Source: Jimgerdemannia flammicorona (Eukaryota). From it: DNA of 34,252 nucleotides. Below are positions 1 through 32,567 of the stretch, one piece after another. The stretch spans positions 1 through 34,252 of the forward strand of contig RBNJ01000281.1 in assembly GCA_003990765.1 (NCBI GenBank). Direction: 5' to 3'. How positions within the stretch are numbered: position 1 is the stretch's first letter; each line of letters begins with the position of its first letter. The position numbers and the translations under genes are program-made. The notes beneath the pieces were generated by a model that worked only from the letters and a program-made list of their open reading frames with translations, did no database searches and was not told the DNA's origin.

Positions 1-1
1 G

Positions 2-799
2 GATGATTCCAACATCTATTCAGCAAATTTTGAAGAACACCTGCACCACCTAGAGGAATTCTTCAAGCTCACCCGCAAGAATCACTTGAGACTGAATGCA
101 AAGAAATACTACTTTGGAAAACAGAAACTTGAATTCCTGGGATTCATGGTCTCAAAGGAACGAACTCATGCAGACCCAAAGAAAACTGAGAAGATCAACA
201 ATTGGCCAGTACCCAAGACTCCAAAAGAAATACTATCATTCCTGATGCTAGTATCCTACTACAGAAGGTTTATCATAGATTTTGCCCAAATCACTGCCCC
301 AATCCGAATCCTTCTCAAGAAAGAAGTGCCATTCAAATGGACAGAATCACAGGAAAAAGCTTTTAGAGAACTCAAGAACTGCATGACTACAGCACCAATC
401 CTTGTGCGCCCCAATCTACAGAAGCCATTCATCTTGTATACAGATGCTTCTAAAGATGGTCTAGGAGCAGTTCTAGCCCAAGAAGGACCTGACCAACAGC
501 ACCATGTGATAGCTTATGCAAGCAGAGCTACCAATCAGCAGCAGATGAACTATGGTAGCACCAAACTGGAATGCCTTGCAGTCATATGGGCAGTCACCCT
601 GTTCAAGCATTACCTTATTGGAAAAAGGTTCACCCTGATCACAGACCATGCAGCCCTCAAATGGCTATTCAACCACAAGGAACCTGCTGGAATTCTAGCC
701 CGCTGGATCGTTATCCTTCAGGATTACAAAATCACCATTATTCACAAAGCAGGGAAAGCCCACAACAATGTTGATGTACTTTCCCACCAGCCCCAATGA
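2..799 (+). CDS. pol: Pol fragment of element A: RT C-terminus and RNase H (5'-truncated by window)
   Basis: The frame is open from DDSNIYS (YxDD region) through FLGF, LYTDASKDGLGAVL, LECLAVIWA and TDHAAL to NVDVLSHQPQ*. Confidence 0.93.
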   Translation, partial: DDSNIYSANFEEHLHHLEEFFKLTRKNHLRLNAKKYYFGKQKLEFLGFMVSKERTHADPKKTEKINNWPVPKTPKEILSFLMLVSYYRRFIIDFAQITAPIRILLKKEVPFKWTESQEKAFRELKNCMTTAPILVRPNLQKPFILYTDASKDGLGAVLAQEGPDQQHHVIAYASRATNQQQMNYGSTKLECLAVIWAVTLFKHYLIGKRFTLITDHAALKWLFNHKEPAGILARWIVILQDYKITIIHKAGKAHNNVDVLSHQPQ

Positions 800-1853
800 A
801 TCAGAGGAAGGGTGTCCCGAGGAACCACACCCTAAAGAAAGCTCCTCAGACCATCAAAGCACAAGAAGATCTTATCCGAAAAGAACATCAGAAAGCCCAC
901 CAAGGACAGACAAGTATAGAAGAGAGGATTAAAAAAGAATATCAACATTGGCCCCACCTCAGAACTCAAGTTTGGGACATCATCCAGAAATATGACATCT
1001 GCCAGAAGTACCAAGGAAAGAAGAACTATTAAGCCCCTCTGCAACCGATTCCCCCACCCACTCACATCTTTCAAAGATGGGGAGTAGATGTAATTGGACC
1101 TCTACCAGTTACACCAAGAAGAAACAAATATATTCTTGTATTTGTAGAACATCTGACCAAGTGGCCCAAGGCTTTTCCAATGGAAATCACAGATGCCTTA
1201 ACCATTGTAGGCCTCCTCCATGGACTCACACTCAGATATGGACCTCCAGAAGAACTCATCTCTGACTGAGGCACAGAATTCATCAACAACATAATTACAA
1301 GTTATGCCCAAATCCACAAGATCCACCTCAAAAGGACCACATCATACCACCCCCAGACCAATGGCATGACAGAAAGAATGAACCAGACCATTAAGAGGGA
1401 CTTGTCCGAGTCAACTCTACTAATTGGGACCTCTGCTTACCTGAGATCCTGTGGGAAATTTGGAATACCCCTGCCACATCCACCAAACAAAAGCCATTCG
1501 AAATGATGTTTGCCAAGAAAACCAGAACTGCTGACCATGAGAATCTCGGAGACCTCCTCAAGAAGACAGAACAGTTACGAAATCAAGCCCAGGAAAGACA
1601 AAAGAAATACTATAACCAAAAACAGAAGGATCAGGAGATCAAGATTGGAGATCAAGTCCTAGTTTGGAGAAGTATAATTGAGACAAACTTTGCCGCCAAA
1701 CTGGAATCAAAATGGGAAGGACCTTATTTTGTATACAACATCAGAGGAACCAGCATCTATTTAAGAAGCATGGATAGATGAACCCTGAGAACACCAGTAC
1801 ACATCAATCACCTCAAGATATACCTCTTCTCACACCATAAATCAGAGAGTTGA
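796..1853 (+). pseudogene. Integrase of element A, separate ORF
   Basis: Starts at ATG 796. Contains an HHCC region (HQKAHQG...DICQ), WGVDVIGP, SD*GTEF, YHPQTNGMTERMN and KWEGPY, ending VHINHLKIY...*. Has in-frame stops and one frameshift near 1400. Confidence 0.9.
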
Positions 1854-2349
1854 CAACCACCTCCAAACTCTTGTTCTCAGTTCCCTCCAAGCCCTACCAG
1901 TTCCCCTGCCTCAGTTCTGGGAACCCAATGGAACCTATCTTCAGAGAATCCAAGTTCATCAAGAGAACCTCACCCTGGCTGAGAGATTACTCCAGGTCCA
2001 CCAGCTGCAGGCATATTATACAATTGGAGAACAATTGCAGAATCTTCCTCTCCCAGACCTAGCCTATATCCAAAACACCACTGGCCTGAACAGAAGGAAC
2101 ACTACTGCTGCAGACAGACTATACACCATATATAAACGAAATCCTTCTGCCTTAATCCAGGCCCAGTTTTCTCTGAATGACCTCCAAAGAATGACTCTAC
2201 CCACCTACCTCAGCATTATTCACCAAGTGGAGACCCTATTTTCTGAGGAAGAAGAAGAGCCCCTGGAATAGAGTGACCGCAGCTCAGATGATGATGATGG
2301 AACAGGTATAGATGCAGAAGCTGCTTATGTCTATTGGGATGATGACTGA
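1837..2349 (+). pseudogene. Accessory 3' ORF of element A, unknown function
   Basis: The frame is open from ATA at 1837 (probably a mutated ATG, M-N-Q-R) to TAG 2271 and continues to TGA 2349. Contains LQAYYTIGEQL...AADRLYTIY and an acidic tail. Confidence 0.7.
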
Positions 2350-2388
2350 AGAATAGTCTGGGACAGACTACCCTTCAGTGGGGGCTGA

Positions 2389-3854
2389 TGTAACAAGACC
2401 AAAACATACCACCTGAATTATAACTTAGCCAGATGATGCGAACAATTAGCATACTTACTCAGCATGATGTGACTTCCAGTATATCATAGTTACTCATGCC
2501 CACCACACTTATAATTAGCCAAGACACCAGATCAGAATTGTTTACCTGTGTCCTGAGGACACACTCATGTCTTGCAGACACACTCATGTCCTGTGGACAC
2601 ACTCATGTCCTGTGGACACACTCATGTCCTGCAGACACACTCATGTCCTGTGGACACACCTGTACCCAGAGGACACACCCAAACATTACCAAAGATAGCA
2701 AATCTATAGTTAGCCACATAGTAACCAGATAGTAACCAACTTGTATAAATTACCCCAGAGGCGCGAGTGAATAAAACTTCAGTCCGAATTGAAGTGCAAA
2801 CCAAAGAAGCCTCTAAAGGTTGGACAATTGGTCCTCTTATTCCCACTCCAGTCCACTTTCCAATATAAAGAAGAGTTTGTTACATTTTTGGTTCGCTTGC
2901 CAGATAAGCCTGAAGATTTGCCACCTAAGTTCAAGGAGAACTTCGCCGCCTTTTGAAGAACCCGCAGCTTAAAGGAATAAGCCACACTATTGGTACACTT
3001 GCCAGATAAGCCTGAAGAACCCTATCCTCCGTCTTTCCAAGAAAGCCACCTTGCTTAAGCCAGTTTCTGATGCAACTTCACAGTGATCCGTTCGCACAAA
3101 CAAAGCTAGTCTTTGACGTAACTTTGCCAAGAGACCCTTTTCCAAGGAATACCGCCAGTTGTTCGTATTCCCAGTAGAAGCCTGCTGATTCAGGAAGAAT
3201 CTGTGCCATCCCATTTCCCAGTTAGAGCCCACCGATTCAGGAAGAATCCACATCACCTGTCATTTCTAAGCTATCCGCCATATTCTCAGTTGAAGCCACT
3301 GATTTAGAAGAGTTCATGCCATCCGAGTTAATTCCCAGTTAAGCTGCCATTTTCAAGAAGTCTGCCAAATCTGCATCATCCACCACTTTCAAGTTATTCA
3401 CATTCCCTGTGAGCCCGGTATAGAAGAATCTGCACCATATGATTCCTAGTGAGCCAAATCGAGTTATCCGCCGAATTATCAGAACATCCGCATAAGGAAC
3501 CCGCCACGCTACACGAAGATCATCACGCTACACAAGATCGTCACACAGAAATCGCCCACCACCCAAGAAGGAGAACCGCTAAATTGCCAGACTGTCACAC
3601 ACAAGGAGATCATCACGCTACACAGAAATTGTGCTATTCCCAGTTGACCGAAGAAGGAAAAGACATACAAATCGCCGCTACACCCAGAGAACTGTCCCAA
3701 TAAGGAAATTGCTCGCACAGTATCCAGATCTTGACTATTATACCGCTAAATACCAAGAACATTTTGTTGCTTTTAACAAAGTAACTGGGGGCTCAAGCCA
3801 AACTACATCAACCCCCAACCTTGTATTTTGCCTCCATTGAGCCGGCACATTATA
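2389..3854 (+). repeat. 3' LTR of element A (about 1.47 kb)
   Basis: Begins TGTAAC and ends CACATTATA, a mutated CACGTTACA as seen in the 33681 copy. TATA at 2744, AATAAA at 2770. Confidence 0.88.
2547..2680 (+). repeat. 19-bp tandem repeat (CCTGTGGACACACTCATGT, about 6 units) in U3 of LTR A
   Basis: Directly visible head-to-tail units with no spacers. Confidence 0.92.
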
Positions 3855-4198
3855 ATAGATTAAATTGAATATACTAGATATATATTTCATCTATTCTTCA
3901 AATGATCACTAAGATACTTTATTTGCTATACAATCTTTACAGAAGTTATCATTAGGATATATTGCTAGTAATCCTCATATGAATTTATTCCTAATTATTC
4001 TTTTTAGACTTAATTTGTCCATATGTCCTAAGTATTAATACTATGTATTAGATATGTCAGATATAGTTATCATATATATAGAGGCTTTTATACTATTTAA
4101 TATACTATTGATTGCATAAAGATTGTCTTGTTTTAATACTATTATAATTTACTTAATATTTTTCAAACTATATACTATTACTCTTATTGAGTATATAT
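3855..4198 (-). pseudogene. Decayed Ty1/Copia fragment (GAG-pre-integrase region); target of elements A and B
   Basis: The minus strand reads T-*-Y-*-Y-L-G-H-M (WHxRLGH-like) and FCKDCIANK (CxxC). Confidence 0.6.
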
Positions 4199-6077
4199 TA
4201 TAACAATATCTTTGAAATCAGTGATATCAGAATTCAGAAGACTGTCTTGACTTTGTAAGCTACTAGTTACAAGTTGTGACTCAACTAAGACTCATCTTGA
4301 TCAGAAGATGATTCCTATCTAAACTTATAATAACTCATAATGAGTCCAATAGTATACTACTCTAAAGCAGATAACCTTACTCTCTGAACCAGAGGAGTAG
4401 ACCCTCAAGATATAAAAAGAAGTATCAAGAGAAGAAATACAAAGTATCAACTATATATAAAAGACTTACTACAAAACAAAATATCTGTCATCTGTCAAAT
4501 AGTAAGGTCAAGGAGCTACCCAGGTCCATTAGTTTAAGAATATATATTTACTGATATCAAGAGGGCATTGAGGTTATATATATATAAGAAAGACCTCTAG
4601 TCTGAACTTTTACATAAGAGACCTCTATCTCTATACTCTCAACTATCAAAAAATGGAAATAGGAATAACCACAGCTACTAAGTATCTCTGGATATAGTAA
4701 GAATATAAAAAGAAACATCACCTCTACTAATAATTCTCACAAGCCAGCTCCTAAGAAATTACAGACAATATATACATAGATAGATATTAACAAAAATTAG
4801 CCAAAAGAGTTTATCAGATCATCAGACATATATCCTGAACCATTCTCAATCTGGAATATGTCAAAATATCTGACATTTAAGAACTGACAAGCTGACATAT
4901 AGACCATCTTGAAGAAATGATTGCAGAAGAGGCCCAATATATCATTATAGTCAAGAGTGATGAGGGTCAAGATCTTTAGAATCTTATCCTAGAGAACAAC
5001 TCAGATTAGTTCATCTATGATCTGATTGTATTATTTCAAGACTCTTCTCTGAGAGTCTGCTCTCTCCAGAATCCCACAGATATTCCCTACTTTGTAGATA
5101 ACAATACCATTAACTAGAGATCTTAAAAGTAGAATGACTTTATGCTCTTTAGTAATATTATCAATAATGACTTAGAGAATAGTGGTGATCTATTTATCTT
5201 TTTAGAAGATGATCTCAACAACTTACTAAGAGATACAGAAAATAATTTGGCCAGACTCTCTGAAGAAAATGAGAAGAAGGATGAGAATGATATAATTTTA
5301 GTTATATTGAATTTTAAGATATATAGGGATAGTTCTATTAGTCAAATTAAGTAAGTTAGTTAGTTGGACAAATAGTAACTACATATTAACTAGCCAAAAT
5401 CATCACAAATATAAAATTAGCCTTATTCAGTTAGTTCATTACCTGAAATTTCAAAATTGTACTAATTAGCATCTATTAGTAATTGTGAGTTAAAATTAAT
5501 TATCTAGCCTTATATATAGCTTGGAAACTATATAAATACCCTCTGATCTATAGAAAATAAACCTCAGTCAATTAGTTTGCAATACTAACTTAAGTTCTGA
5601 AAGATAAGAAAGTCAAGTGTAAGAACTTTGAGAAAAGACTCCAAGAGCTAAAGAAATTACTCTTGCTATTGCCATTATAGAAAATTGGATACAAGACTAT
5701 GAAAAATCATCATGAAACTCAAGATACAAATCTGTCAGTCAAAATTACTATTGGAAAACAAGACTAAGGAAAAGACTTAGAAAAATTGCCAGGAAACTCC
5801 AGAACAACCTACTGGTACTGAAATTGGATACAAGATCTAAGAAATCTATCAGAAAACTCAAGAACAACATATGATATAAGTAATTGCCCTTTTAACATAT
5901 GATTTGAATAACTATCATGTAACCAATAACCAAAGACATGTGAACAGATAAAACAGCAGTTAAAGAGAACATTGAGTCAGAAATATAGTTGAAAATAAAT
6001 AAAAAATAGTATATAGATATTCAGTAACATATGAGTCATATATATCAAGAACTAAGATATATAAATTGCATGCTACA
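4199..6077 (+). repeat. 5' LTR of element B (about 1.88 kb)
   Basis: Aligns colinearly with 13741-14286 plus 20181-21623. Starts TATAAC (mutated TGTAAC) and ends GCTACA before the PBS. Confidence 0.88.
4340..5354 (+). pseudogene. Accessory ORF embedded in U3 of LTR B (about 335 codons)
   Basis: Starts ATG 4340 (MSPIVYYSK). Comparing the two LTR copies restores one reading frame containing LY*EF...QKLAKRVYQII and an acidic/coiled-coil tail. Most stops are explainable by transitions. Confidence 0.7.
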
Positions 6078-6080
6078 TTT

Positions 6081-6096
6081 TGGAGATATAACTGGG
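6081..6096 (+). promoter_or_regulatory. Primer-binding site of element B
   Basis: TGGAGATATAACTGGG lies 3 nt after the LTR-terminal CA, the same spacing as in element C. The tRNA is not assignable by eye. Confidence 0.65.
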
Positions 6097-6229
6097 AAAG
6101 TTTTCTAAAGACTTGGCCATTTGGCTCAAGAATCCAGCAGTTATTTATAGTGGAGGATTTAGAAGAAACTAGTCAGCAGTAAGACTAGGGCCATCAATAG
6201 TTTACTTCAGAAAGAGAAGCTTATATCAT

Positions 6230-9200
6230 TGTTAGAACAGCCCTTACCCTGTTTAGAACTAGTAGTCAGAAAACTAAATCAGAAGAAAGAAGTGATACAG
6301 ATTATGGTTTGATCTTAAAAAAAAGAAGATAACTCAGAAGACTATCTAAGTCTATCCAGATCCAAGGCCCAGAACAAGAAGAAGATTTTCCTGAAGATTA
6401 CTGGATTCTAATCTATAGAAGAGATTCAGACAGAAGTGACTACATTATTACTATCATTACTTAAGCCACTCTACTGGATTAAGCATATTTTGAAACATCT
6501 GAAGGAGAAGAAGACAACCATCCTTATCTTCCAGAACAAGAGAAAGATAATAATTGAAGAAGTTAACCAGACTACCTAAGAGATGAATTCAACCTTTATT
6601 ACTACTTAGGTAGTAATATAGATTCTTGATAAGATAAATAGAATTCTTTTGCTTCACAATAGCAAGAGACAGACAAACTGAACATTAGCTACATCAGTCT
6701 TATTCTAATTGTCAGAACCTCAGTACTCTGGTCCTTTATACTCTGATACTATTCACAAGAGACAAGAAGCTCTAGCCCTCTCAGTATCTTAGTATTTAGT
6801 GATTACTATCACTCAATTAGAGAACCACTACCATCAAGAACCTCTATCCCAGCTTTAATTAGAAGGGCCAGACTCCCCATATTCTCACCAAGATACTGCC
6901 TTTTGCCAGTACTACTAGTTCATCAAGCATCTCTACTATCTCTATCTCTATAAGTATCATTAAGAAATTCTACCCCAGAACTAGACTCAGATAGTAAAGA
7001 TGAACTAGACATAAGCTATCTTCAGGAATTCCATAGAGCAGACAGTGAGGATATCAAGGAATTCTTTGGAGAAATTGAAGTATAAGCAGTAGTCAAGTAG
7101 TAGAATATCCAGAGAAAGCTCAGAATTGTGAAATTACTTCTGAGATATTCAACCCTACAGAAGTATAACCAAGTAAAGCAAGTTGGAAGAGATAGAATAT
7201 ACCAAAAATCTTCAAGTAAATAGAGACCATATAGATAGATATAATATTTATAAAACCTAGCTCTATACTTAGATCAATGGTCTTGAGCACTAATGGGAAG
7301 TATAAGAAGCTTTAATCTATATGAGCCAAGCCACCAATAAAGCTCCAAAAGGTTTTTATTATTGAATTTAAGCTCAGATGATTAGGGCAAACTTGTAATC
7401 TTCAGTCTAACTAGCCTTGTCTAAACCACCTTTCTCAATAGAATATTCTCAAAACTTTGAAGACAGGTCATTAGAATGGGCTATTTAAGTATTGAGTAAC
7501 AAGTTGCTAGAGTATAAGAATGCTGAGAAGTAGACTATAGACTATCTCAGCAAGTTCAAGAATATCAAGAACCAGCTCAAGCTGAAACCTTAAGAACTTA
7601 TATAATAACTATAAAATAAGAGAATGTCTACTTGAGAGCCCAGTTGGCCAGCTATGAGATCAGACCCCCACTCTCAATTTCAACTCAATACAGGCAACAA
7701 TAGCAGCCCCCACTAAGAACTTAAGAAGACCCTATGATAATGCTCACTAAATAAATAAAAGACCTAGTTATTGTGATTGCTCAGTTAAAGAACTAAGAGA
7801 GAAGATAATAAGATTATTGTTGAGATAATAGACCAGACTACTGATAGTAAGATAACAGGAGTTCCATTCAGGCCCCACTGGTTACAACTGCAGATTCACC
7901 AGCAATAGGTTTCTATACTCTAACTTGCTTCAACTGTAGAAACCAAGATTACATTCAGAGGTTTTTCCTAAAGAAACAAACTCCATCCAAATACAGAAAT
8001 ATCAATCTCATTTAAGTAGATGAAGAGACTCAAAAAATATAAGAAAAAGCTACCTGACTTCATGATCAAGAGAATATCTATCCATACTATAAAATCTTTT
8101 TCTCTAAGATAACTTGAGATGTAGTATATATATTGACCAGAGAATGAGAAAGACCTCTAAGGACCCCACTTCCACCACCATTGCCTGTAACTATATCTAC
8201 AAGCAAACATCTAAGATATGGCCATTCTTTTTCAGATACTTCTCTGAAGAAGGACAAGATTGTCAGAGGAGACACCTCTGAATCAGAAGCTGGTCCATCA
8301 AGAGTATCAAGAAGTACCTCTCTATCTGATCTTGAAGAAGACAAATATATAAGTATAGAGTCCTCAGCTGATGAAATGTCCAATAGAAATAAGAGGATCC
8401 ATTATAAAAGACCTAGACATTAAAGAAGCAATAAGCCCCATGAAGCAGCATTACTTTGGAAACATCACTATATCCAGAATACAGGTCTCACAGTTGAACA
8501 AGTTCTCAAGAATATACTAGAGATTAGGTGAAAATTCCTAAAGGAAGTTAAAGAAGATATCAAGAGAATTTCTGTCCAAGGACTATATATACTAGAGCCT
8601 AGCACTATCTATGTAGTCTATGAATATCAATATTAAGAATATCAATCTATAAGACTAACTAATGAAAAGGTATATAGTGAGAATACCAGAATTCTTATTA
8701 ATACTGAAACAGCAGTTTGCATTATCACCCAGTGAATACTAGAAAGAATTGGATGGAGAATTGATGAAGACACCAAAGCAAGAGTTATTATGGCAGATGA
8801 ATCAGCATCTATCCCCCTTAGACTAGTCAGAGATATATCTATTTAAGTTGGAAAAAAGTCTACCTCAATATAACTTAAGCTATTGTAACTCTAGTAATCT
8901 CTTATAATCTGATTTTGAGAACTAACTAGTTAAACTAAGTTGGAGTCAATGTAGATATCAAGAAATAACTCCTGGTCTTCACCTTCTATAGATAAAAGCA
9001 TAAGGTACCAATTGAGTCAAAAGAATTAAGGAGAGCCAGTCAGGTCTCTAAGACAGAATAGTAAGGATATAGAGATATACTCACTATTATAGAGAATAAA
9101 GGTAAAGCAAATTTTCTACAAGAACTAGGAAGTGATTTTGATACCTCTAAAGACTCTGAAAGTAGTCAAGAAGACCTTTTTATCAGAGTTATTAATACTG

Positions 9201-13418: not shown

Positions 13419-13882
13419 ATAACTCAGCTCACTCCATCTGTATCATCACTATTGAAGAATAATAAATGCTTTCTTTAAAACTCAAGAAGCTAATAATATT
13501 GGAACTATTCTTAAGACCATCTATGTGACAGATATTACTACTAGAAATTGTCTCAGATTTTAGGAAAATCTATTTCTGAGAGGTTTGAACCCCCAGCTAT
13601 AATAATGAGAGCCCTCACCCTAGATAAGAATGGCCAGTTCTCATAAATATACCAATAGTTTATTCAAAAATGGAACTAAGACCTGCTATTTCTATATAAT
13701 CATCACTGCCAAGAATGACTCTAATTTTATAAGGAGCAGATGTAATAATAGCTTCAAAATCAGTAACATCAGAATTCAAAAGACCATCTTGACTTTTCAA
13801 GCCACTAGTTGCAAGTCTTGACTCAACTGTGACTCATCTTGATTAAAAGATAATTTTTATCTAAACTCATAATAACCTAAAA

Positions 13883-14367: not shown

Positions 14368-16398
14368 ATGGCGACCAATGAGCATCTGGAGGTGCATACT
14401 GGGCAGGGTGGCCCTGGAGCATTTGAATGGCAGCAAGTGGGGAGAGGCCCCGGCTTGGAGGGAAGTATGAGGGGCCTGCTGGCAGGGGGCTGTGGTGGAG
14501 GAGGGGGCAGAGCTGGAGGTCAAGGGTCTGGCAGAGTGAGCTTTGCAGAGAAGGTGAAGGGGGGTCGGTAGGGAGCTGGACTGGAGAGCTGGTTGAGAGG
14601 GGGGAAGGTACCGGTGGCGGCTTCCAGGTAGCAGCCTCTTGGGGGTACCTCTCTAGTGGGCCATAGGAGTGGAGCTGGGGGGGTAGCAGCTGGGGCGGAG
14701 ACTGCTGATGGGAGTGTGATGGGTGATCTGGAAAAAAATTTAGATGGGACTGCTGATGGTGAGCCGAGCAGTGGGAAGAGCATGAGGCCCGGGGACCTGG
14801 CGGATGGTGTAACAGGACTGGTGGTGGCTCCGTTACTCAAGAAGTCGATCTCGGCGTTCACAGTCATGCTGTGCTTCCGGGGCTTAGCAGTGATGGCAAA
14901 AATGGTGTTGGGACTTATCGCTAAGCAGGTGGTGGGAGCGGCTTCAGTGAAGTTTCTGAAGGGACTGAAGGGGGTGGAGGTGGGATTTGAGGAGGTTGAA
15001 CTGCTGGAAGAGGCACTGAAGGTTGGGTTGGTGGTTGGGGAGGTGTATGTTCTAATGGCGAGGTATCTGAAATGGGATCCGAGGGTGGTCCAACTGCTGG
15101 TGAAGGGAGTACTCATGGTGACGGTGATGGAGACAAGGAAGAGAGTGGAGAATGTCATGGCAGAGTACAGAGAGGTGGTGGATATCAGATTCAGGGTCTG
15201 GGAAGGGACCATGCTCAGGACTGGGGATGTGGATGTGAGGATTCAGCTGGCTGGGAAAGAGGCTACCAGAAAGACGAGGGACTGGCCTTCAGTGTTGGTC
15301 TGGGGAGCTTTTCTGTGCAAGGTGACATAGGTGAAAGGAAGTGAAGAAGAGGAGGAAGATTTATTGGAAGTACTGGAGGAGCTGGATGGGGCTGTGGACC
15401 GGCGAGCTAAGGTCTGGAAGGCTTTCGAGGAGTCGATGCTCCTGGAGGTGGTGGATGGAAAGAGGATTCGAGTGGACAAGGTGCAGTGGGAAAGGGCTCA
15501 GGGGTGGAAGAGGCAGAAGGATCTGCTGGCTAAGCTGGGGGGGGGACCACAGAAGGATGCAAGCAGGAAGACAGGTGCAGAAGGGGCCGGAGCGAGTGTC
15601 TGGGTTGGTGAGAGGAGTGGGAACGATGGGGCAAAGTCAGGAAAGGCTAAGGAGGCGAAGATTAGTGACCTATATGCTGACGGCACCTTGGAGGTTTGGG
15701 ATGAAGTCTGGGAGAATTCCCCCACCCCCTCCCCTCTTATCAGGCATGGCCCGGCTTCCAGGAACAAGTCTGGGGAGGACGTGATGATGCTGGAGACCCA
15801 GCAGGTGAAATTCAGTATTCCGGAGGTATTGGATGGGGACCGAGTAGAGGCAGCAGGGGAGGAGGAACTGGTGGATGTCCCGGAGGTATGGGATGAGGAT
15901 GCAAGTGTGGGAGCTGACACCACGATGCTGGAGGGAGGGAGGCTGGCGACCCCTGGTGGAAAGGAGGTGGGGAACCTACTTTGGATGTGCCGGATGATGA
16001 ATAACCTGGCAGCAGAAGAGCTGGGGGAGGTGGACTTGTGTGGGATGGGTGACGAGCACTAGATGAGAATTTTGCAGGGGGAAGGAGTGGCGATGGCGCT
16101 GAAGGCGGAAATCCTTGCAGTGTATCTGGAGAAGGAAGGGTACGAGGTGGATAAGGAGAGGGAGGCGGAGTTGGCGGTGGTTGCTGGGGAGAAGGCTGAG
16201 TACTGTTGAAACCGGCATCATGGGTTGCAGCTTTGGCAGGAGGCTTGCATCAAGTACTGGGAGGAGTTTGAGGAGAAGGCTGATGAGGAGATGAATGAGC
16301 TGTTGGCTGGACTGGAGGCTCAGAGGGCTGAAGAGGAGGAGGTGATGGCTGAACATAATCTGGACACAGCGCAGGAAGAGAGGGGCATGGAGCAGTAG
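14368..16398 (+). pseudogene. LINE ORF1
   Basis: ORF-track segments 14368, 14656 and 15331 share one frame, broken only by TAG codons. Contains the SFAEKVK motif typical of L1/Tx1 ORF1 N-termini. Confidence 0.75.
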
Positions 16399-16428
16399 AG
16401 ATTGATTGAGAACAAACCGTATTTTACT

Positions 16429-19400
16429 ATGAACAGTATAACCAATATTTTTTCTTTGAATGTGAATGGGCTGAGGGGCACGGTTCGACACAGGAACATT
16501 TTTATTTGGTTGAAGGGATTGGAGGCCGATCTCTTCCTCTTGCAGGATGTCAGGTGCGAGGATGATGCTGATAGGATGGAATGGACTAGAGAATGGGGTG
16601 GTATGGCAACTTGGAACAGCAAGGTTGGGATTCTGGTTCAGAAAGGCAGAGGGGAGATAAAGGATGTGAGGAGCTGGGGGGAGAGACTGGTCTGGGGGGA
16701 GTGGATTTGTGCAGGTTGGGAGCTGGTCACCATTGGCTCCTGTTACTGCCCTGCTGTGCAGGGTGAGCATGTGGATTGGGTGAAAGAGCTCCTGGAGAGT
16801 GGGATCCTTGCTGAAGCTGGGTTGGATATGCTTGGAGGAGATTTCAATATGGTTTGGAATGTACGGTTGGATAGAACTGATGGAGGACGGGGTGCAGAGA
16901 GCAGGAGTGGGGGGTTGGTGATGTGGGAGGAGGTTGAATGGCTAGGAGCACTGGTGGATGCTGGTAGGGAGCACTGGGGGGACAGGAGGGTATATACGCA
17001 TTGGGCTGGAGGTCTGGGGACAAGGATTGACTGGATTCTGATGACCGACTATTGGGGCCACAATGTTTGGAAGATATTAGAGGTAGAATAGTATCTGTGG
17101 TCAGATCACTGGGGCCTCTTGGGACAGGGGTGTTTTGGGGGAAGTAGGGATGGGCCTGGACATTAGTGCCTAAATTCCTCCTTGTTGGATGATGAGGCCC
17201 AGTGGAAGGTGTGGGCAGAAGACATTCAGCTGAAGGTGGCGAATTGGTGGCAGGAAGGGGCCACAATTGGGGTTTGGTGGATGAGAATAAAAGAGATGGC
17301 CAGGATGTATTGGAGCAAGGCTGGCAGAGTGGCTGGGAAGCAGCGAAGGCAGAAAGTGCATTGGGCTTCCACTCGATTGGCTAGGCTCCTGGAGGAGGGG
17401 GCAAGACTGGCAGCAGTGGAGGGAGAAGAGGATTGGAGAATGTCAAGGGTGAAGATGGAGGTTGAGGAACTGCAACAGGTGCTACAGGAAGAGGAAGAGT
17501 CAAGAGTGCAAGGCCTGGTGGCATGGCTTCATTGGCAGGGGCTGGAGGAAGGGGAGAGGCCTTCCAAGTTTCTCACAAGGACACTTTGAGTGAGAAGGGT
17601 ACAGCAGCAGTGGGAAGGGGTACTTGGCTCGGATGATGTACTAGTGCATGGTGTACAGGATATCCTTAGAATGCTGAAGGCGAAATAGAGTGGATTGTGG
17701 AGTGAGGAGGAGGGTGGGGCAGATGCTACAGCCATTGACCAAACATTAGAGGATTGGCACCCACCACAAGCTGAGGGACTAGGTGACCTGGTGATGCCTG
17801 TAAGGGAGGAAGAGATCCACCAGGTTCTTGCCGCGACAGCCTCGGATACAGCACCTGGGGAGGATGGCCTCCCTTGGGACTTCTGGAAGCGAATGGTTGG
17901 AGTCCCGGGCATATTGGGGGAGTTGACAGCACTGTGTAACTCTATATTGCAGTCAGGGAGATGGGTGGGGGAGCAAGACCTTGGGCTGGTGATGCTGCTT
18001 TATAAGAACAAGGGAAGGTGAGAGGATTGGAAGAACTGGCAGCCGATAATGTTGCTAGATATGGACAGGAAGTTGGTGACTAAGGTGGTGGTCGCAAGGC
18101 TACAGAAGGTAGTCCAGCAAATTGTGGGTGGTGAGCAGAGGGGCTTCATAGGAGGTCGGCTTATTAGAGATGGCACAGCCTGGGTACATGGAGTTATTGA
18201 AGGTGCTCAAGCCTGTGGACTAGATGGGTGTCTTGTCTTCTTGGATCAGAAGAAGGCTTATGACTGGGTGCGGCGAGTCTGGCTGGCGAAAGTATTAGAT
18301 AGAATTGGAGTTCCAGGCCCATTTTGGTCAGCAATGGTCAGCCTACTGGAAAGGAGTAGGGCTGCGCTTGTATGCAATGGGCATCAAGGGGTGGCTTTCT
18401 CTCTGGGTAGGGGAGTGCTCCAGGGGGACCCACTGTCCCCCATTTTGTATGCTCTTTCCTTGGAACCTCTGATGGACAGGATTCGGTGGAAGATCGTGGG
18501 GCTCTCTATCTATGGCATTGGCTGGAAGGTTGGAGCCTTTGCAGATGACATGGTGGTTGGCTTGGGAGTGACTGTGGATGTCGAGGAGCTCCGGAAGACA
18601 GTGGAGTGGTATGAGGAGAACTCTGGGGTGAAGCTGAATTGGCACAAGTGTGAAACAATTGTGCTGGGCAATGGCTTGGTGGGCGGAGAAGTTATTGGAA
18701 CAATTGTCCCCACCGGAGAGGCAGTGCGGTACTTGGGCATCTATTTGTCGGTCTATGGGTCGGTTTTGCCCAGACTGTGGTGGGAGCAGAGGATTGGAAT
18801 TTGGGAGGAGGACCTGCAGAGTTGGGGGGGTCGACACTTCTCTCTGGCAGGAAGGATCTCGATTTTGAATGTATACTGGTTGCCAAAGCTGTGATATTTG
18901 GCCTATCATCTGGACTTCCCAGCCTGGGTAGTGAAGAGATTGGTGAAGGTGGCCAAGGGATGGATTTGGGCTGGCAGATGGAGTCAGATTGGTTGGGAGA
19001 CTTTGTCCCTACCGGGGTGAGAGGTGGTCTTGGGCTGGTGGACTTCCCCAAATGACTACACTGCTTGAGAACTTGGTAGCTGAGGAGGGTGGTGGAGTTG
19101 CATGGAGGGGGCTGGATCCCCCTGCTGCAGAAGATATGGGAGAGGCAGACATCGCCTAGAGGCTTGACTGGTGATCTTCTTTCATTGGTTGGGCTTCAGA
19201 ACACTGCACAACTGAGATATAAAGGCTTCTGGTGGGGGATAGCCAAGGGGGCACACCACATTGGTATTCACTGGCAAGGGGATGAGGGGGAGAGGGCTTG
19301 GGACCCAGTGATGTGGAGATGGGATAGCATTCTTCTGGGAGGCATGCCTTTACTGGAGTTCAACATTAGTGATAGCATCAAATGTCAAAGGGGCCCAGGC

Positions 19401-20084
19401 CAGGATCTGTGGCCTAGTGGTTGGCAAGGAGTTGGAATTGGTGAGGAGTGAGACTGGTAGGGGGTTTGGACCTGGAGTGCCATAGTGAAGAATTGGATGC
19501 TGCCGAAGTACTGGGTAGTCTGGTGGTGTATACTGAGGAGGAATGTGATGCTTAACTTCCACTCAGGACACCTTGTGGTAGGGGGCTGCTTTGACTGCGA
19601 GGAGTGCCATAATATTGGGCAGGAAGGGGGATTGGTACAGACACTGGAACATTGGCTAGGGGAGTGTGAAGTGTTGGGAGACTTTTGGCAGGCTATTGGG
19701 GACCGCTTGGGGGTAAGGCATAGGGGTGATGATGTATGGGGGAGGTGAGAGGACCTGAGAGATCAATTGATTGGAGGGGTTGGGGAAGAGTGGATTACTC
19801 TAGACTGGATGTTGGCTATTTGGATTGGGCTGGCCAGCCACTGGCTATTTGTATTTGAGGAGGAGAAGCGACCGAGCTTAGGGAGCCGGTTAGCAAGGTG
19901 GTGGTTCCTTATGGAGGATACCTTAACAGGCTGGTGGCTTGATTGGGGGCTGCAGGGGAGTCAGAGGCGCCACTTGGTGGTGAAAATCTGTGGTCAGAGT
20001 GGTGGGAGGGTTGGAGTTATTGGTGAGAGGATGGTCTTTATACGTAACAAGGTGGGGTGGGGCCACCTGATGGGGATCGGATAG
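16429..20084 (+). pseudogene. LINE ORF2: AP endonuclease, reverse transcriptase, C-terminal Cys/His domain
   Basis: Contains SLNVNGL, GGDFN, RIDWI, SDH, APGEDG, DQKKAYD, QGDPLSP, FADD, YLG, GGLGL and CFDC..EH...EC. Has in-frame stops and a frameshift near 19012. Confidence 0.95.
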
Positions 20085-21623
20085 TGGGTGGTGATATTGT
20101 ATACTCATTCATAGACTGGTAATAAAGACAGAGTCTAAGGGACTATAAACAAAAAAAAAAAAAAAAGAAGGACCCCTAGTCTAAATCTCTATATAAGAGA
20201 TCTCTATCACTATACTCTCAACTACTGAGAAATAAAGACAAGAATTATCACTATTATTAAGTGCCTCTAGATGTAATAAGAATATGAGAAGAGATATCAC
20301 CTCTACTAAGAATTCTTACAAATTAGCTCTTAAGAAATTTCAGACACTATATATATATATAGATAGATATAAATAGAAATTAGCCAAAAGAGTTCATCAG
20401 ATCTTCAGATATATATCCTGGACTATTCTCAATTTGAAATATTGCAAAGTCTCTGATATTTAAGAACTGGCAAGCTATTATATAGACTTTCTTGAAGAAA
20501 TAGTTATAGAAGAGGCCCAATCTATTATTACAGTTAAGAGTAATGAGAGTTAAGACCTTTGGAATACTATCCTAGAAGACAACTCAGATCAGTTCATCTA
20601 TGGTCTAATTGTATTATTTCAAGGCCCTCTCCTGAGAGTCTGCTTTTTTCAGAATTTCACAGATATTCTCTACTTTGTAGATAATAATATCATTAACTAG
20701 AGATCTCAAGAGCTATGTCTCTTAATAATATCATTAACAATAACTTAGAGAATAGTGACAACTTACTTATTTTGTTAGAAGATGACCTCAATAACTTTCT
20801 GAGAGATGTAGAAAATAATTTGGCCAGACTTTCTGAAGAAAATGAGAAAGAGAATGAGAATAATATAATTTTAGTCATATTGAATTTTAAGATATATAAG
20901 GATGGCTTTATTAGTCAAATTGATAAGTTAGTTAGTTGAACAAACAGTAACTGCATATTAATTAGCCAAAATTATCACAAATATAAAATTAGCCTTATCT
21001 AGTTAGTTAGTCACCTGAAATTCCAAAATTATATTAATTAGTATCTTTTAGTAATTGTGAGTTAAAACCAATTATCTTGTCTTATATATAGCCTAGAAAC
21101 TGTATAAATACCTCCTGATCTGTAGTGAATAAACCTCAGTACAATACCAACTTAAGCTCTAAAAGATAAGTATAAGAACTTTGAGAAAAGACTCTAAGAG
21201 GTGAAGAAATTACTCTTACCACTGCTACTATAGAAAATTGGATACAAGACCATAAAAAATTATCATGAAACTGAAGATATAATTCAGTTAATCAAACTAC
21301 CATTAGAAAACAAGACTAAGAGAAACCCCTATAAAACTTACCAAAAAAACTCTAGAACAATCCACCACTACTAAAATTGGATATAAGATCCAGAAAACCT
21401 ACCAAGAAACTCTAGAATAATATATGATACAAGCAATCACCCTTTTGATATATAATTTAAATAATTATCATATAACTAATAACTCAAGATATATGAACAG
21501 ATTGAATAGCAGTTGAAGTAAACATTGAGTTAGAAATATTGTTGGAAACAAACAGAAGATAATATAGATATTCAGTAGCATATTGAGCTAAGTATATCAA
21601 GAACTAAGAAATACAACATTATA

Positions 21624-22173: not shown

Positions 22174-24285
22174 TTAGTTGCATTGTTTAAATTTAGGTCC
22201 CAAAAGAGCTTTGGTAAGCAAATATATAATTATATACTCTGTGGGGATATATTCTAAATATATAGTCTCATTCTCTATGCTCTCTCTTATATAATAGTGC
22301 TGTATATCAATATGCTTTGTTCTGGAGTAGTATATAGAGTTCTTTGCCATAGCAATCATAGACTAGTTGTTCTAATAAATAAGTATAGAGTTTTATTTCT
22401 GATTAAAGCCTAGCTTCTTTAATAATTGGTATAGCTAAATAACTTTCTTTATTGTAATAAAAAGTGCTTGATACTCAGTCTGAGTAAAAGAAATTGTTAT
22501 AGAGGACTGCTTGCATATTTACTATGAAATAATAAACTTATTGTCAAAATAAAGAAGTATCCAGTCATAGATTAAGAGTTGTCTAAGTCTCTGGCCCAAT
22601 CAGTATCATATATACTAGATAGTTATATACTATTCTTGTTGTTATTATTGTTATTACTTCTGCTCAATCTACTGAGAGTGAGTATATAATATACTATATC
22701 TTTAAGGTATCTGAAAATTCTTTTAATAATACTCCAATATAAATTATTATAGTATAATGAGTATTATGTCACCTTATTGACTATAAAACCTCATTTCAAA
22801 TATGAGATATATAAGAGAACTGACTACTTGCCAATAGAGAATATTGATATCATTCTTGATAGATATATTATTACCATCCTCTGGTATAGTATTAGGCTTC
22901 CTTAACTTTACAGATGTATCTATAGGAGTACCAACAGACTTGTATTCATTTATATTAAATTATTTGAGAATTTTTTGAATATATGTTACTTAGAGGAGAT
23001 ATATAGTATATATATTCCTATTATATATGTATAATAGAGATCTCTAAAAGAAAGGATGCATTGCTCATATCTATCATCTTAAATTCTTGGCATAAGGCTT
23101 TTTTAACTTTATTAAGCCTATTCTTGCTGGCAATAATAATGATATCATCTACCTATATATTAATGAATACTATACTACCATTATTATAATCTTAGACATA
23201 TATACAATTATCTATTTCAAAATATATAAATCTATTATAAAGAAGATATTTATCAATCTTTTAATTCTATATATATGGCTTGCTTAATGCTATATAATTC
23301 TTTACATAACTTGTATAAAAGGTTACTGTTCTAACTATTATATAGTTTATATTCTTCTGATTAATAAAATATAGCTCAGTATCTATATCACTATTGAGAA
23401 AGGCTATCTTAATATCTATCTGATGGATTTTTAGATTATATATATAATATACTAATTATAAGAAGTATTCTCAGTGAAGTAAGCTTGAATACTAGCAAAA
23501 ATATCTTATTATAGTCAATACTATAATCTTGTAAGTAACTCTTAGTAATAAAGCAAGCTTTATACTATTCTATATTTCTATCATTTTTGTACTTAATTTT
23601 ATAAATCCAATATGATCCTACATATGACTTATAATTACTCAGAAGAGATATCAGATCTTATGTATCATTCTTGATAAGCAAATTATACTCTTTGTCTATG
23701 GCTTACTTATATTTCTTATTGTTAGAGAAAGTTATCACTTTATTATATATGTTTGGCTCACTGAAAGTTATAATAAACATATATTCATATATCTTTATAT
23801 TGAGATATCTTTAGCATATCTCAATAACTCTTTAAATTAAAATGAGTTTCTTAGAGAATATTGAAGTACTTTTGCTTACTCTTTATAGAGAACCTCTTGC
23901 CATCATTAGAGGTCTTGTTATCCTTGATTTTCTTTATTCTTAGCTCAGGTAATGTTGACTTATATAGCAGATAATTTTCAACTAACTGTATTTAAAAAAT
24001 ATTTTTCTTTATTGCTAAAGAGATTGGCACAAGTTATTACATTTATACTGGCTATAATATAAAGATAGATATCTCAATATATATATCTATATGGGGTTCC
24101 TAATTTCCTTTTTCATTAAACTACACATTATATGAGATTATTATTTAATATTTGTATGAATTCCAGAGTCAGTATACCTTGCTGAAATATCTCAAAAATA
24201 TGTACTTGCTGGCTTTTGGTTCAAACTTGTATCAATTAACATTCCTCTTATTCAGAATATATGTATTATACATATCTATATATAT
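22174..24285 (-). pseudogene. pol: Decayed Ty1/Copia pol: integrase C-terminus, RT, RNase H
   Basis: KFEPKASKYIFL..KVY*LW at ~24200; HQIDIKIAFLN at ~23410; *VDDI at ~23145; RTKHIDIQHYYIRE..LTKAL at 22174-22359. The IN-RT-RH order is Copia-type. Confidence 0.88.
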
Positions 24286-24753
24286 TGTAACGTAGCAGAT
24301 ACTTACTCTTGAAAGTACGTCAGATTTCTGTATCTTGAAAACTTGACCATTCTGACTCTCACAGAGTCTCTTGAAATTGTAGGGGAGGGTGGGTGAGTTC
24401 AAAGTGTATCTGCCCACAGGCTTACTAGTTCCTTTACTATCTCTTTGCTTTTGAACTATTTCGATCTGAGGTTTATTCACTCGAAGATACTGGGTTATTT
24501 ATACAAGTTTGCTAGCTATGAGATAGCTACTGAGTTATGCGGCTAAGTTATGAGTCATTTAGACAATGTCTAGAAATTTAGACAATGTTGAAATGCTATA
24601 CTAAATCAGGGTGTTCGATTTGAATAATGTCTAAGAATTTAGACAATGTCGAAATCGAAGACTGCTAACTATAAGGCTATACTACTTTGGGACTGGGTGT
24701 GATCAAGTATCTATTCTCTATTTCCTTCTTCCAAATTTGGCTATACCATTACA
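24286..24753 (-). repeat. 3' LTR of element C
   Basis: Direct repeat of 32568-33035, preceded on the minus strand by PPT-like CAGGAGGAAGT. Confidence 0.97.
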
Positions 24754-25597
24754 ACTTCCTCCTGAATAGATGGTCTCATCTCTGGGGCATCTATTCAAAC
24801 TCCCAGGCTTCAACCATCTGTATGGTCTTGTACTGTGCAATTTGCTGTATGACTGTTTCTCAATGATGTCTTCTCACTTTCTCGAAGTCGGTGGGGGTTA
24901 CTCCTCTCAGGTGGTCTATTTGTAAGAGGGTTACTTTTTAGAGTAACTGTTACATAGTTCTAGAAGGGTTTTTTGGATATTCTGGATGTTCTGGAAGACT
25001 GTTTTCTTATGGTCAAGATCAATATCATATGGAGTACATCCTCTACGCTTATTGATTTCAAGATCAGATTGACATCTCAACCAAAGTCCTTTTTTGGACT
25101 AGTTCTGGATGTTCAGGATTTTCCGTATTTCAGAAAGTTCAAGAAACTAAGACCAGCTTAGTTGAATTGGTGTATCGCTGCAGACAATATCCAATTAGGA
25201 AATTTCGTGATGGGGTTAGGAGTAGGACCTAACAGGGAGCGGATTTACTTAAGTGTGGTTTGTGGGTTATAGAATAGGTTTATTTGCTATTCATGATATT
25301 GCTATACTAGGAGTATTTGTGTGAAGGAGTATTGTGGAGAAGTATTCAGGAATGTTCTTGTGTATTCGAGTCTGAGATTCTGAGGTCTGGGGGAGGGGGT
25401 ATTTATACTAGTGAGGGGCTATCTGAACTATACTGAATATAGGTGTAGCACTAAGTGCCTTGCTGAGTCGGAATGCAGTCACGTAGTACAAGTGTGATCT
25501 GATATGTCAAGAGATCGTCTGACTGCTGAGTCAGTTCACAGTCACATTATACAAGGCTAATCTATCTATACTATGACTGCTAGACTATTTATAGGTC

Positions 25598-26752
25598 TTA
25601 GGCACTATCTGGGTAGTCTTCGATGACATCACCATCGATTGCATCATCTCTGATGAAGTAGTCATCTAGGAAGAGTGGTTCGCAGATTACTTCTCCTTGT
25701 TGGCTGAGGTAGTAATACATTGGAACTTCATCTCCATCCCACAGGATAGCATTGTCTGTCTCGTAGGCTGGATAAGGTGTTGGTGGACAAAGAATGGGTG
25801 TATTGTCTTCGCTTTCATCAGATTCACTATCTGCATACCTTCTATAGGTTATGGCACTATGAGTTGTGGGGTTATAGTATGCTGGCAGCTGTGGTTCATG
25901 TCGCTCGTACTCGGGTGGTGGAGTGGTTGGTTCGATCTCAAGGGTTGTCTAAAGGTACAGGTTGTATTCTCCAGTCTCTTCATTGTAATTGAAGTAATCA
26001 GGGGTAAATGCGGGTTGGTATTCATGCCAGTGGTCATTGTCCCAATAAGTCTCATATGCAGTTATGAACTGTTGTAAGTTCATTGGCAAGGTTGGCGGAG
26101 TGATCAGGGTTGGCAGAGATCCTTGGCTTGAGGTCATGTCAGCATCAGAGGGATCATTGTCTTCTGCTTCATCTTCGTCAAAGTGGATTATATCATAGAC
26201 ATCCTTTATGGCGTATCTGACTTGAGGCATTTGTAGAATATAGTCATCAGGGTGCGGGAAGGTTCTGTCTGTAGTCTGGACGTATTCGAGATACTTGTGG
26301 TTGAGTTCTTGTATCATGTCATCAATTTGGCCGTAGGACAGGGTAGCAACCATTCCGCTGGTAGTAACTCGGAGGCGGGGAATAACAGTGCTGTACTCAT
26401 AGAAGAGTTCTCGATGTTTGCGGGTGATGAGCTTCTGGTGTTGAGACATCTGGGTAATGTCTGTATCATGATGGTGTTCGACCATGTCTTCCAGGAGGCG
26501 GCCAATCTGGTAGTAGCTTGAGATTTGTCTGATTTGGTAGGCCTTGCTAAGCATGTTCAGGGCGTTCCATCGGGCTTCCACAAAGTAGAGAGGTGCCAGG
26601 CTATGGATATTTATGAGGGGCAGAGGGGGTGTGGCTCGGTTGACAATGGCATTCCAAATGTCAGCACGGATATGGTTGTAGATCTCGGTGGTCATGTTTG
26701 TGTGTTTGGAAGTTGTGGTTGTTGTTTGTTTTGGTTCTCTGATTCGACGCAT
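25598..26752 (-). pseudogene. Second accessory 3' ORF of element C, unknown function
   Basis: A 267-aa ORF (ISSYYQIGRLL...QKLITRKHRELF). A protein-like acidic/Pro-rich reading continues past TAG 25949, with one frameshift, to TAA ~25598. Confidence 0.75.
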
Positions 26753-26784
26753 CTCGGTGCTCGGTATATATGCATTTAGTCCTA

Positions 26785-27264
26785 ATTGGTAAGATTCTGT
26801 TTGTATAAATCTTGTGTTCCGTGACTTTGTATTAACTCAGCTTTGTGTGCTGTGACTTCGGTTTGACTCAGCTTTGTGATCAAGCAGGTGATTTCCAGAT
26901 TTGTTCAGAGGTCACATGTAATTTCAGTGGCTTGGAGGTTGTGCACTTACACTATTGCTGATTCATCTTCTCGGAATAACTTGTGGATCCTTTTGGTGAT
27001 AGTGATCTGTGAGTGAGAGAGTTGACACTCGGCAATCCAGTCCTTCTTGGTCTTTGCTGGATCCTGATTGAGCACCTGCCCAAGCTTGAAGTACTCTTGG
27101 AATTCTGCCCAATATTGATAGGCTCTAAAGTACGAGATCCAAGAGAGATGAGTCTGCACAATACTCTGAATATCCTCATAGTATACCTCTATGGTCGGAG
27201 GCTTGGTGGTGTGCCATTGTCTTTTGATGGCTCTTTGGGCAGCACTAGTGATCTTGAGTGCCAT
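26785..27264 (-). pseudogene. First accessory 3' ORF of element C, unknown function
   Basis: ATG lies just after the integrase stop. Contains FQEYFKLGQVL...ITKRIHKLF; the reading continues past TAA 26947. Confidence 0.72.
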
Positions 27265-27276
27265 CACAGTACTTTA

Positions 27277-28470
27277 TTACTGGCCATAATATTTCTTGAG
27301 TCAGTTTCGGTAAATGGTGGTGGGGATTATTGTGTCTGAGGGTTTTCATAGCCAAAAGGTGGTCCCTTTTATATCTTGCACAAGGTAAGGTTCTTCCCAC
27401 TTGGGCTCCAGTTTTCATGACTATGAAGCTTCTACCATATTCTGATACACTAGGACCTTATCTCCTATCTTGATAATCTCCAAGGGCTTGTGGGTCTTTT
27501 CCGCATTCCTCCATTGTAGTGTCTGCGCCTTGGATATATAATCCTCAGCCTTCTTCCTGATTTGGTTTAGTTTCTGTATTTCCATGTCCACATGTTTCCA
27601 TACAGCATCTCCATTGGATGATAGGGTTCCTTGAGAACATTCTTCTCTGAATAGCATTTCTCGAGAGGTAAAGTGGGTACTTTGTGATCAGATATCCTGG
27701 AGAGCAGATAATGCTATTGGCAGATAGTGATCCCAGTTCTTGTAGTTATCACAGATCTTAGCGATATAATTCTTGAGGGTTTTGTTGGTCCTTTCTACTT
27801 GTCCGTTTCCTTGGGGGTGATAGGCTGTAGTTCGAATGTACTGGATCTTGTACTTCTTGTAGAGAACCTCAAAGAGCTGGTTCATGAATTCTGTTCCTCT
27901 ATCTGTAGTTACTTGTATTGGGGTCTTGAACCGGCAGATGATTTCCTTGTGGAAGAAATCAGCGATTGACTGTACATTGGCTTCCTTGAGGGGTCCTGCT
28001 TCTATCCACTTCATAAAAAGGTCTACGATGACAATGATGTATCGGTTACCACTCAGGGTCAAGGGTAGAGGGCCAATTACATCCATTGCTATATGGGCAA
28101 ATAGTACTGGTTCTATGTGTGCTGATCCTGGGGCCTGATTCTGTTGGTCTTGTTTCTGTTTCTGGTATTTGTCGCATATCTTGATAAATTGTCTGATATC
28201 TTCCTCTATCTCTGGCCACCATATTGTTCTTCTTGCCTTGTCATATATATTCATTTCTCCTAGATGGCCAAGTTTGTATACTGATTTCATTGCTTGCTCC
28301 TTCTTGTATTCTTGTATGACCAGTAGTTTTCCTTTCTTCAGTGTTTCTCCATTGGTTTCGAATTGTTTCCATGTCCTGTCGATAATCGTTTGTATCCATT
28401 CTTCCAGATGTTGGGGCATCTTTCGCTGTCTCAGGTATGTGATAATTCCGTAGTAGAGCTCCTTATTCAT
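27277..28470 (-). pseudogene. Integrase of element C, separate ORF (about 398 codons)
   Basis: Starts MNKELYYG at 28470. Contains DVIGPLP, TDRGTEF, YHPQGNGQVER and PKWEEPY, ending LKKYYGQ*. No chromodomain. Confidence 0.92.
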
Positions 28471-32454: not shown

Positions 32455-32546
32455 CTTGTCTGGGTATTGGGGCTTGATTTGTATGGTTGTTCGGATAGTG
32501 GCGGTTGTTCGTTGTTCAGCTTGAAGTGAGGGATTCGTCTTGAATC

Positions 32547-32564: not shown

Positions 32565-32567
32565 AGT

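Follow-up and report, generated by a model that had tools for sequence, protein, structure and literature searches.

The integrase of canonical Ty3/Gypsy retrotransposons (Metaviridae, such as Ty3 and Tf1) is cleaved from one Pol polyprotein, and textbook retroelements carry this enzyme into the particle within Gag-Pol. Among relatives of LTR retrotransposons, separate, closely packed or overlapping open reading frames (ORFs) on one RNA are known for the recombinase of DIRS and Ngaro elements and for the successive genes of caulimoviruses. DIRS/Ngaro elements, however, have a tyrosine recombinase and no DDE integrase, and the Caulimoviridae are without integrase; their reinitiation moreover requires the viral TAV protein (PMC5902531). 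Translation by stop and restart at AUGA or UAAUG is described for fungal victoriviruses and hypovirus CHV1 (PMC6631646) and, at a UAAUG between ORF1 and ORF2, for the non-LTR element SART1, where a downstream hairpin is needed (PMC5972666, PMC5902531). The use of frameshifting by retrotransposons with long terminal repeats (LTRs) is contrasted there with the stop-restart of the non-LTR element (PMC5902531). We compared with these systems a window of 34,252 nucleotides (nt) of Jimgerdemannia flammicorona (the whole of contig RBNJ01000281.1, assembly GCA_003990765.1), which holds three decayed Ty3/Gypsy copies, A, B and C, whose integrase lies outside the Pol frame. We found no published account of Ty3/Gypsy elements with the integrase in an ORF of its own, PMC4427930, PMC5911963, PMC3248453 and PMC13468544 included, although most subscription journals and Repbase reports were outside this search and an earlier mention is possible.

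The copies are located as follows:
1 to ~4000, forward strand: copy A, truncated by the window edge
~4322 to 21296, forward strand: copy B, G+C content about 30%
~24285 to 32866, reverse strand: copy C, bounded by LTRs

They are dead copies of one Ty3/Gypsy LTR clade with named members from the Mucoromycota (Rhizopus, Rhizophagus, Entrophospora). In this clade one ORF covers Gag, protease, reverse transcriptase (RT) and RNase H and stops 1-25 residues past RNase H; an integrase cistron and a third ORF follow. We are highly confident that the separate integrase cistron is a trait of the lineage and not a product of decay, as a previous reading of the sequence alone (the sequence-only reading) had proposed. 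This is borne out by all five close DNA relatives that reach the junction, by the Rhizopus pols, by 106 of the 120 best-matching integrases and by two trees, all presented below.

Assignment to Ty3/Gypsy is based on the order of RT (RVT_1), RNase H and downstream integrase, seen with Pfam in A, in C and in L008, a metagenomic relative; blastx and profile matches bear this order out for all three copies. Furthermore, LTRs flank the coding region in B and C, and the integrases of C and L008 have an H2C2 zinc finger and a DDE core (Integrase_H2C2, rve). With canonical elements such as Ty3 and Tf1 the clade shares these LTRs, the order protease-RT-RNase H-integrase, the H2C2 and DDE integrase and the zinc knuckle of Gag. 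A single Pol polyprotein including integrase, which is the usual organisation and not a formal criterion, was absent from A, B, C and the five close DNA relatives. Unlike Ty3 and Tf1, the clade has its integrase outside the Pol ORF with a conserved Met of its own, a third ORF after the integrase, and Gag through RNase H in one ORF with no gag/pol shift (L008 and Rhizopus P0323). An integrase outside Pol, a single Gag-RNase H ORF and an extra ORF are departures from the usual Ty3/Gypsy plan.

All three copies are dead. The integrase of A contains two stops and an extra frame break near 1396-1401, the RT-RNase H region of C has five in-frame stops and its gag-pol an extra frame break near 30470-30487, and copy B is riddled with stops. 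Since all of them are decayed, the window alone cannot separate design from decay, and it is the relatives that decide.

On the pol side, the RT-RNase H ORF of copy A was used in an exhaustive HMMER protein search. Among the closest single-copy relatives, at 44-51% identity, many terminate 1-12 residues past the RNase H domain. Their C-termini read '...LSRIVH' (P0233), '...LSRLGR' (P0258) and '...LSRLGY' (P0259, P0316), as compared to '...LSHQPQ' in A and '...LLRIS' in B. The P0259 cluster stems from Rhizopus delemar, R. arrhizus and R. microsporus, and its full gag-pol proteins of 1387-1389 amino acids end '...ADFLSRLGY' and are without integrase. Like A, the Rhizopus gag-pol thus terminates three residues past the 'LSR' motif of RNase H.

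On the integrase side, the best match of copy A was an integrase-only protein from Entrophospora candida, beginning MDIQLYESIKYYL. For copy C the five best matches were integrase-only proteins of 530-571 amino acids, all beginning at a Met aligned with the MNKELYYG of C. A profile search with integrase-only proteins returned 1556 proteins at E <= 1e-20; the best 120, among them proteins of Rhizophagus irregularis and R. clarus, were all integrase-only, with 358-453 amino acids. A start module of the form M-[D/E/N]-x3-Y-x2-L-x2-Y-L occupied one and the same column in 106 of these 120. Gene callers always begin at a Met, but the recurrence of one column in 106 clusters is beyond what they can create and shows conservation of the ATG itself. 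In the four of 65 fused relatives that are alignable there, this column holds E or K and never M. The catalytic D, D and E were invariant in ten out of ten aligned integrases. The survey of other fungi that the sequence-only reading had suggested accordingly turned up separate integrases or short pols in Rhizopus, Rhizophagus and Entrophospora. Integrase cistrons of Rhizophagus (P0393, P0449, P0441) are annotated as stand-alone genes, either as 'DDE-type integrase/transposase/recombinase' or as 'putative integrase core domain protein', and two R. irregularis integrase clusters comprise 35-42 member sequences per 90% cluster.

DNA relatives were obtained by scanning metagenome contigs with an alignment of C-like integrases. 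This gave 80 loci, 67 of which hold an adjoining RNase H and integrase. The two lie in one open frame, the canonical state, in 58 of the 67 and are interrupted in nine. Five of the 12 loci closest to C reach the junction (L001, L002, L003, L008 and L010), and these make up five of the nine interrupted loci. In all five, pol ends 9-25 residues past RNase H and the integrase ATG lies at most 5 nt from the pol stop. The junction reads TAATG in L001 and L002, TGAtcATG in L003, ATGA in L008 and, as in copy C, ATGaaTAA in L010. Taken together with A and C, the offset from stop to ATG ranges from -5 to +5 nt, and both candidates in B are ATGA. Lineages that keep stop and ATG at most 5 nt apart share only about 40% protein identity. 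The four other interrupted loci do not add to this set: L040, considered as a further ATGA case, was rejected because it belongs to a fused-type element whose integrase N-terminal module is disrupted by an ordinary frameshift; L052 and L066 have in-frame stops, and L076 is ambiguous. A scan of viral contigs with an A-type RT-RNase H alignment yielded one locus only, at 33% identity and fused.

L008 is intact. It presents an ORF of 1577 amino acids, open to the contig start, with a Gag zinc knuckle, protease, dUTPase, RT and RNase H, then an integrase ORF of 418 amino acids, then the third ORF. A continuous frame through RNase H and integrase in intact copies, which the sequence-only reading had set against a lineage trait, was not what we found: L008 keeps the break, just as the start column is kept in the protein relatives. 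The dUTPase domain (3e-32) lies between protease and RT (residues 931-1058 of the gag-pol ORF at 2-4732). The two contig ends (2-40 and 8090-8115) carry one coding stretch, 'FIRDFELYA', so that the assembly wraps round, as would be expected if the element had been assembled in tandem, as a circle or with collapsed LTRs.

Of the copies in the window, C has the following features at the junction:
28463 to 32313, reverse strand: gag-pol remnant, ending 'NADALSWIPQTTSNQQINHE' followed by TAA (28465-28463), with one private frame break near 30470-30487
28463 to 28470, reverse strand: ATGaaTAA, in which the ATG (28470-28468) lies 5 nt before the pol stop TAA (28465-28463), in the +1 frame
27277 to 28470, reverse strand: integrase (MNKELYYGIITYL...), open to 27688 with stops beyond, carrying Integrase_H2C2 and rve

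The integrase ATG at 28470 and the pol stop at 28465-28463 on the minus strand, as previously read, are upheld by the Integrase_H2C2 and rve matches in the +1 frame. This frame is open over 280 codons, stop to stop, which hold the zinc finger and the rve core, and the integrase profile matches from its position 1 at the ATG (E 7e-37). The gag-pol remnant is 64-72% identical to a single ORF of L010 (774-4616), the relative that also carries ATGaaTAA. The break of C at about 30.48 kb is not found in the L010 ORF, whereas the break between RNase H and integrase is common to both. This is the pattern expected of private damage on the one hand and design on the other.

Copy A is organised as follows:
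2 to 799, forward strand: RT-RNase H part of pol, open to the window edge (RT_RNaseH, 2e-38 in Pfam), ending 'NVDVLSHQPQ' followed by TGA (797-799)
796 to 799, forward strand: ATGA, in which the ATG (796-798) overlaps the pol stop TGA (797-799), integrase being in the -1 frame
796 to 1871, forward strand: integrase remnant, in frame 1 over 796-1494 with two stops and in frame 3 from about 1401

The stop lies three codons past the RNase H end 'VDVLSH'. A placement three residues after an LS[RH] motif is common to P0233, P0258, P0259/P0323/P0326 and P0316, and the pol stop of copy A is clearly the conserved stop. The frame opened by ATG 796 carries Integrase_H2C2 (1e-7 in Pfam), and the pol stop with an overlapping integrase ATG in the -1 frame at 796-799 was correctly read. 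The profile match, however, starts only at position 62, and some 60-70 N-terminal residues of the relatives are absent. With this N-terminal module lacking, ATG 796 may or may not have served as a working start. A soil metagenome run was compared with the window (9% of the words; its contigs were placed on 1-13000). Its A-like contigs are many and short; among the best-supported rows there was no indel or joint at 796-799, which is a weak hint only, and related contigs show loose ends at 1396, the second frame break of copy A.

The junction of copy B is more intricate:
11347 to 12144, forward strand: RT-RNase H, frame 1 with many stops, ending 'NIDILLRIS' followed by TGA (12142-12144)
12141 to 12203, forward strand: first ATGA and a 20-codon frame-3 ORF (MNLIRREGAPIREGASCLPK), closed by TGA (12201-12203)
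12200 to 12346, forward strand: second ATGA (12200-12203), followed in frame 2 by 'MSQELYLALIWSL...', the probable, still tentative counterpart of the conserved module that opens the integrases of relatives
12358 to 13050, forward strand: remnant of the integrase zinc finger and catalytic core, back in frame 1, the RNase H frame

This RT-RNase H is matched best by residues 1304-1567 of the 1577-residue L008 pol. The claim made for B stood in part. The letters tcATGAac do stand at 12141-12144, where the RNase H frame ends, but the frame opened at 12141 runs for just 20 codons and the integrase lies elsewhere. All three ORFs do begin Met-Asn at the ATGs that had been named. The second ATGA is built with the TGA that closes the 20-codon frame, and the stretch that follows it weakly matches positions 1-50 of the start-module profile of the relatives (E 0.0013 when searched locally and 0.22 across the entire window). 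A broader profile of 109 integrase N-termini, run on all six frames of the window, reported the start of C and did not report 12200 at E <= 100. We consider it probable that the homologous integrase start of B is ATG 12200 rather than 12141, and the ATGA at 12141 may be due to chance. A short stretch directly past the pol stop is alike in A (796-850) and B (12141-12203), beginning MNQRKGVP and MNLIRREGAP. In B it forms the 20-codon mini-ORF with an ATGA at either end, which may be a coding integrase extension, a relay ORF or simply a spacer.

In a tree of RT-RNase H (92 rows, tail columns excluded), 13 short-tail pol rows together with A, B and C formed one clade with a support of 86 in the SH-like approximate likelihood ratio test (SH-aLRT). 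Therein, A and B were sisters (98) and C paired with L010 (99). A sister trio (P0263, P0257, P0304) is also without rve in Pfam, the 19 rows together being supported at 81. In the integrase tree, likewise of 92 rows, one branch (88) split 62 fused rows from 27 integrase-only rows and A, B and C. The two trees agree, which indicates that A, B and C represent one lineage and one origin of the trait. The three families are consequently not the independent witnesses for which they had been taken. On the other side of the balance, three of 16 short-tail pol rows (P0283, P0275, P0305) fall outside the clade, unexplained, and the clade supports of 81-88 come from quick searches and stay under the customary mark of 95.

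A third ORF follows the integrase in all members seen as DNA. These ORFs (5951-6649 in L008, 3012-3779 in L001, 2403-3119 in L003, 1597-2271 in L002 and 5756-6253 in L010) are mutually related, with E values from 1e-5 to 3e-49 in a small search. The corresponding feature of the window is:
26947 to 27273, reverse strand: remnant of the third ORF of copy C, 63% identical to that of L010

No Pfam family was found for the third ORF of L008, L001 or L010, and no usable Atlas match for that of L008.

How is the free-standing integrase made? We favour stop-restart translation and give it a probability of about 0.45-0.5. Ribosomes would finish Gag-protease-RT-RNase H on the full-length RNA and then restart at the overlapping AUG (AUGA or UAAUG). 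The integrase so made would be free, would amount to a fraction of Gag-Pol and would then have to join the particle in trans, possibly via its N-terminal module. Recruitment in trans would follow from a free integrase and is suggested here by the gene layout. Stop-restart would at the same time replace the gag/pol frameshift as the control of stoichiometry, which fits the single ORF from Gag to RNase H. The full proposal, in which this widespread Mucoromycota clade gave up the Pol-integrase polyprotein for stop-restart with integrase at a set, low ratio, recruitment in trans via the N-terminal module and control of stoichiometry, is put forward more tentatively than the restart itself. Stop-restart is favoured on account of the close spacing of stop and ATG across distant lineages and of motifs equal to the AUGA and UAAUG of the fungal viruses and SART1. 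Stop and AUG indeed overlap or lie a few nt apart, and in all eight junctions with an assigned ATG the latter lies at most 5 nt from the stop of the preceding frame. Conserved RNase H residues reach to within 2-27 codons of the stop (2-3 codons for A, B and the pols of Rhizopus type), and the conserved integrase module opens with the Met itself. Splicing that fused pol to integrase would find no space for its intron between the final RNase H motif and this Met.

The resemblance to the victoriviruses and CHV1 resides in ATGA or TAATG at the boundary between a long ORF and an enzyme ORF, in fungal hosts, and in the separate product that would result. These are RNA viruses, however, with the boundary between capsid protein and RNA-dependent RNA polymerase and a demonstrated upstream pseudoknot, whereas in the clade an upstream hairpin is predicted in some members, and ATGaaTAA occurs in two members and TGAtcATG in one. 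With SART1 the clade shares the nature of a retroelement with an overlapping stop-start, and downstream hairpins are predicted in L002, L003 and L008. SART1 nevertheless belongs to another class of elements, and its boundary is that of ORF1 and ORF2 instead of RNase H and integrase.

Several observations weigh against stop-restart. In B, the probable homologous Met at 12200 sits 56 nt past the stop of the pol frame, and this gap means that the tight coupling to pol may fail in the branch of A and B, for which the scans gave no intact DNA relative. The third ORF overlaps the end of the integrase by 26-404 nt and is thus not coupled stop to start; it is probably expressed by some other route, such as from a subgenomic or spliced RNA, and the integrase could be made in that way too. 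Folding the RNA over 90 nt before and 110 nt after the junction revealed no element common to all members. An upstream hairpin was clear only in L001 (1799-1833, z -2.3), L002 (419-450, z -4.5) and A (z -2.45), in L001 and L002 just before the stop-start and built from different letters, and none was seen in L003, L008, L010 or B. A downstream hairpin about 20-60 nt past the integrase AUG was significant in three of six members (L002, 474-521, z -3.3; L003, 1244-1282, z -3.7; L008, 4760-4790, z -2.5), not in one pairing register and with different letters in each. These predicted hairpins may be restart elements or due to chance.

The same observations feed the most substantial rival, according to which the separate integrase is a real lineage trait but is expressed from its own subgenomic RNA, spliced or driven by an internal promoter, the closeness of stop and ATG reflecting compact coding. 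Retroviral and Gypsy env genes are made from subgenomic RNA, and the overlap of the third ORF, which stop-restart is unlikely to reach, makes at least one other message probable; the RNA structure near the junction is not consistent, and the homologous Met of B is perhaps displaced by 56 nt. We nonetheless regard this explanation as less likely than stop-restart, given that all eight assigned ATGs keep within 5 nt of the stop at some 40% identity and that the motifs are exactly those of the fungal stop-restart viruses. Packing alone would allow longer overlaps or gaps, as it does in the third ORF. Programmed ribosomal frameshifting within the short overlap would instead fuse integrase to Pol and keep the polyprotein logic. 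LTR elements usually rely on frameshifting at gag/pol (PMC5902531), and the integrase frame is indeed open for 60-135 nt upstream of the ATG in L001, L002, L003, L010 and C. In A, B and L008 it is open for just 18-33 nt, however, and the direction of the shift is mixed, -1 in six junctions and +1 in two, differing even between the tree neighbours L008 and L010. A slippery heptamer of the type XXXYYYZ is not shared, one being present at one of nine junctions. Frameshifting needs no ATG either, yet the Met column is fixed as described above and replaced by E or K in the four alignable fused relatives. On these grounds, the mixed direction, the lack of a shared heptamer, the short overlap and the conserved Met, we consider frameshifting very improbable.

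Plain decay, that is, indels in dead copies with ATGs arisen by chance, appears least credible of all. The many stops and further frame breaks of all three copies in the window would be in its favour, as would the abundance of the word ATGA, with 187 occurrences on one strand and 182 on the other; the unrelated locus L040 carries an ATGA that arose by chance, and the first ATGA of B may be another such case. The word alone is unremarkable, and what exceeds chance is its placement and its conservation in relatives. The break recurs, however, in relatives that are intact or nearly so, in annotated proteins from three named fungal genera and in more than 100 integrase-only clusters, it maps to one clade in two trees, and decay is contradicted for the pol stop of A and for C.

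A large and evidently successful clade lacks the link by which textbook elements bring integrase into the particle, which raises the questions of how the integrase is dosed and how it gains access to the complementary DNA, and makes the clade a natural system for both. If true, the stop-restart would be the first known in an LTR retroelement and would extend to fungal LTR elements a mechanism of RNA viruses and one long interspersed nuclear element (LINE). There are also practical consequences. Pipelines that demand one intact pol ORF will call active elements of arbuscular mycorrhizal fungi and Mucorales broken, and integrase cistrons annotated as stand-alone genes, in metagenomes also as 'transposase InsO family protein', inflate gene counts.

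The LTRs of copies B and C were located as follows:
4322 to 5743: 5' LTR of copy B, its partner being 14012-14271 plus 20165-21296, at 79-88% identity
24285 to 24584: LTR of copy C, forming a pair with 32567-32866 at 95% identity
32567 to 32866: other LTR of copy C, at 95% identity to 24285-24584

The 3' LTR of copy B is interrupted by a nested LINE at 14272-20164. This insert is distinguished by a G+C content of 50-56% and a strong skew of G over C. Its ORFs encode an Exo_endo_phos endonuclease (6e-8) and an RVT_1 reverse transcriptase (6e-26), as in a LINE-type non-LTR retrotransposon.

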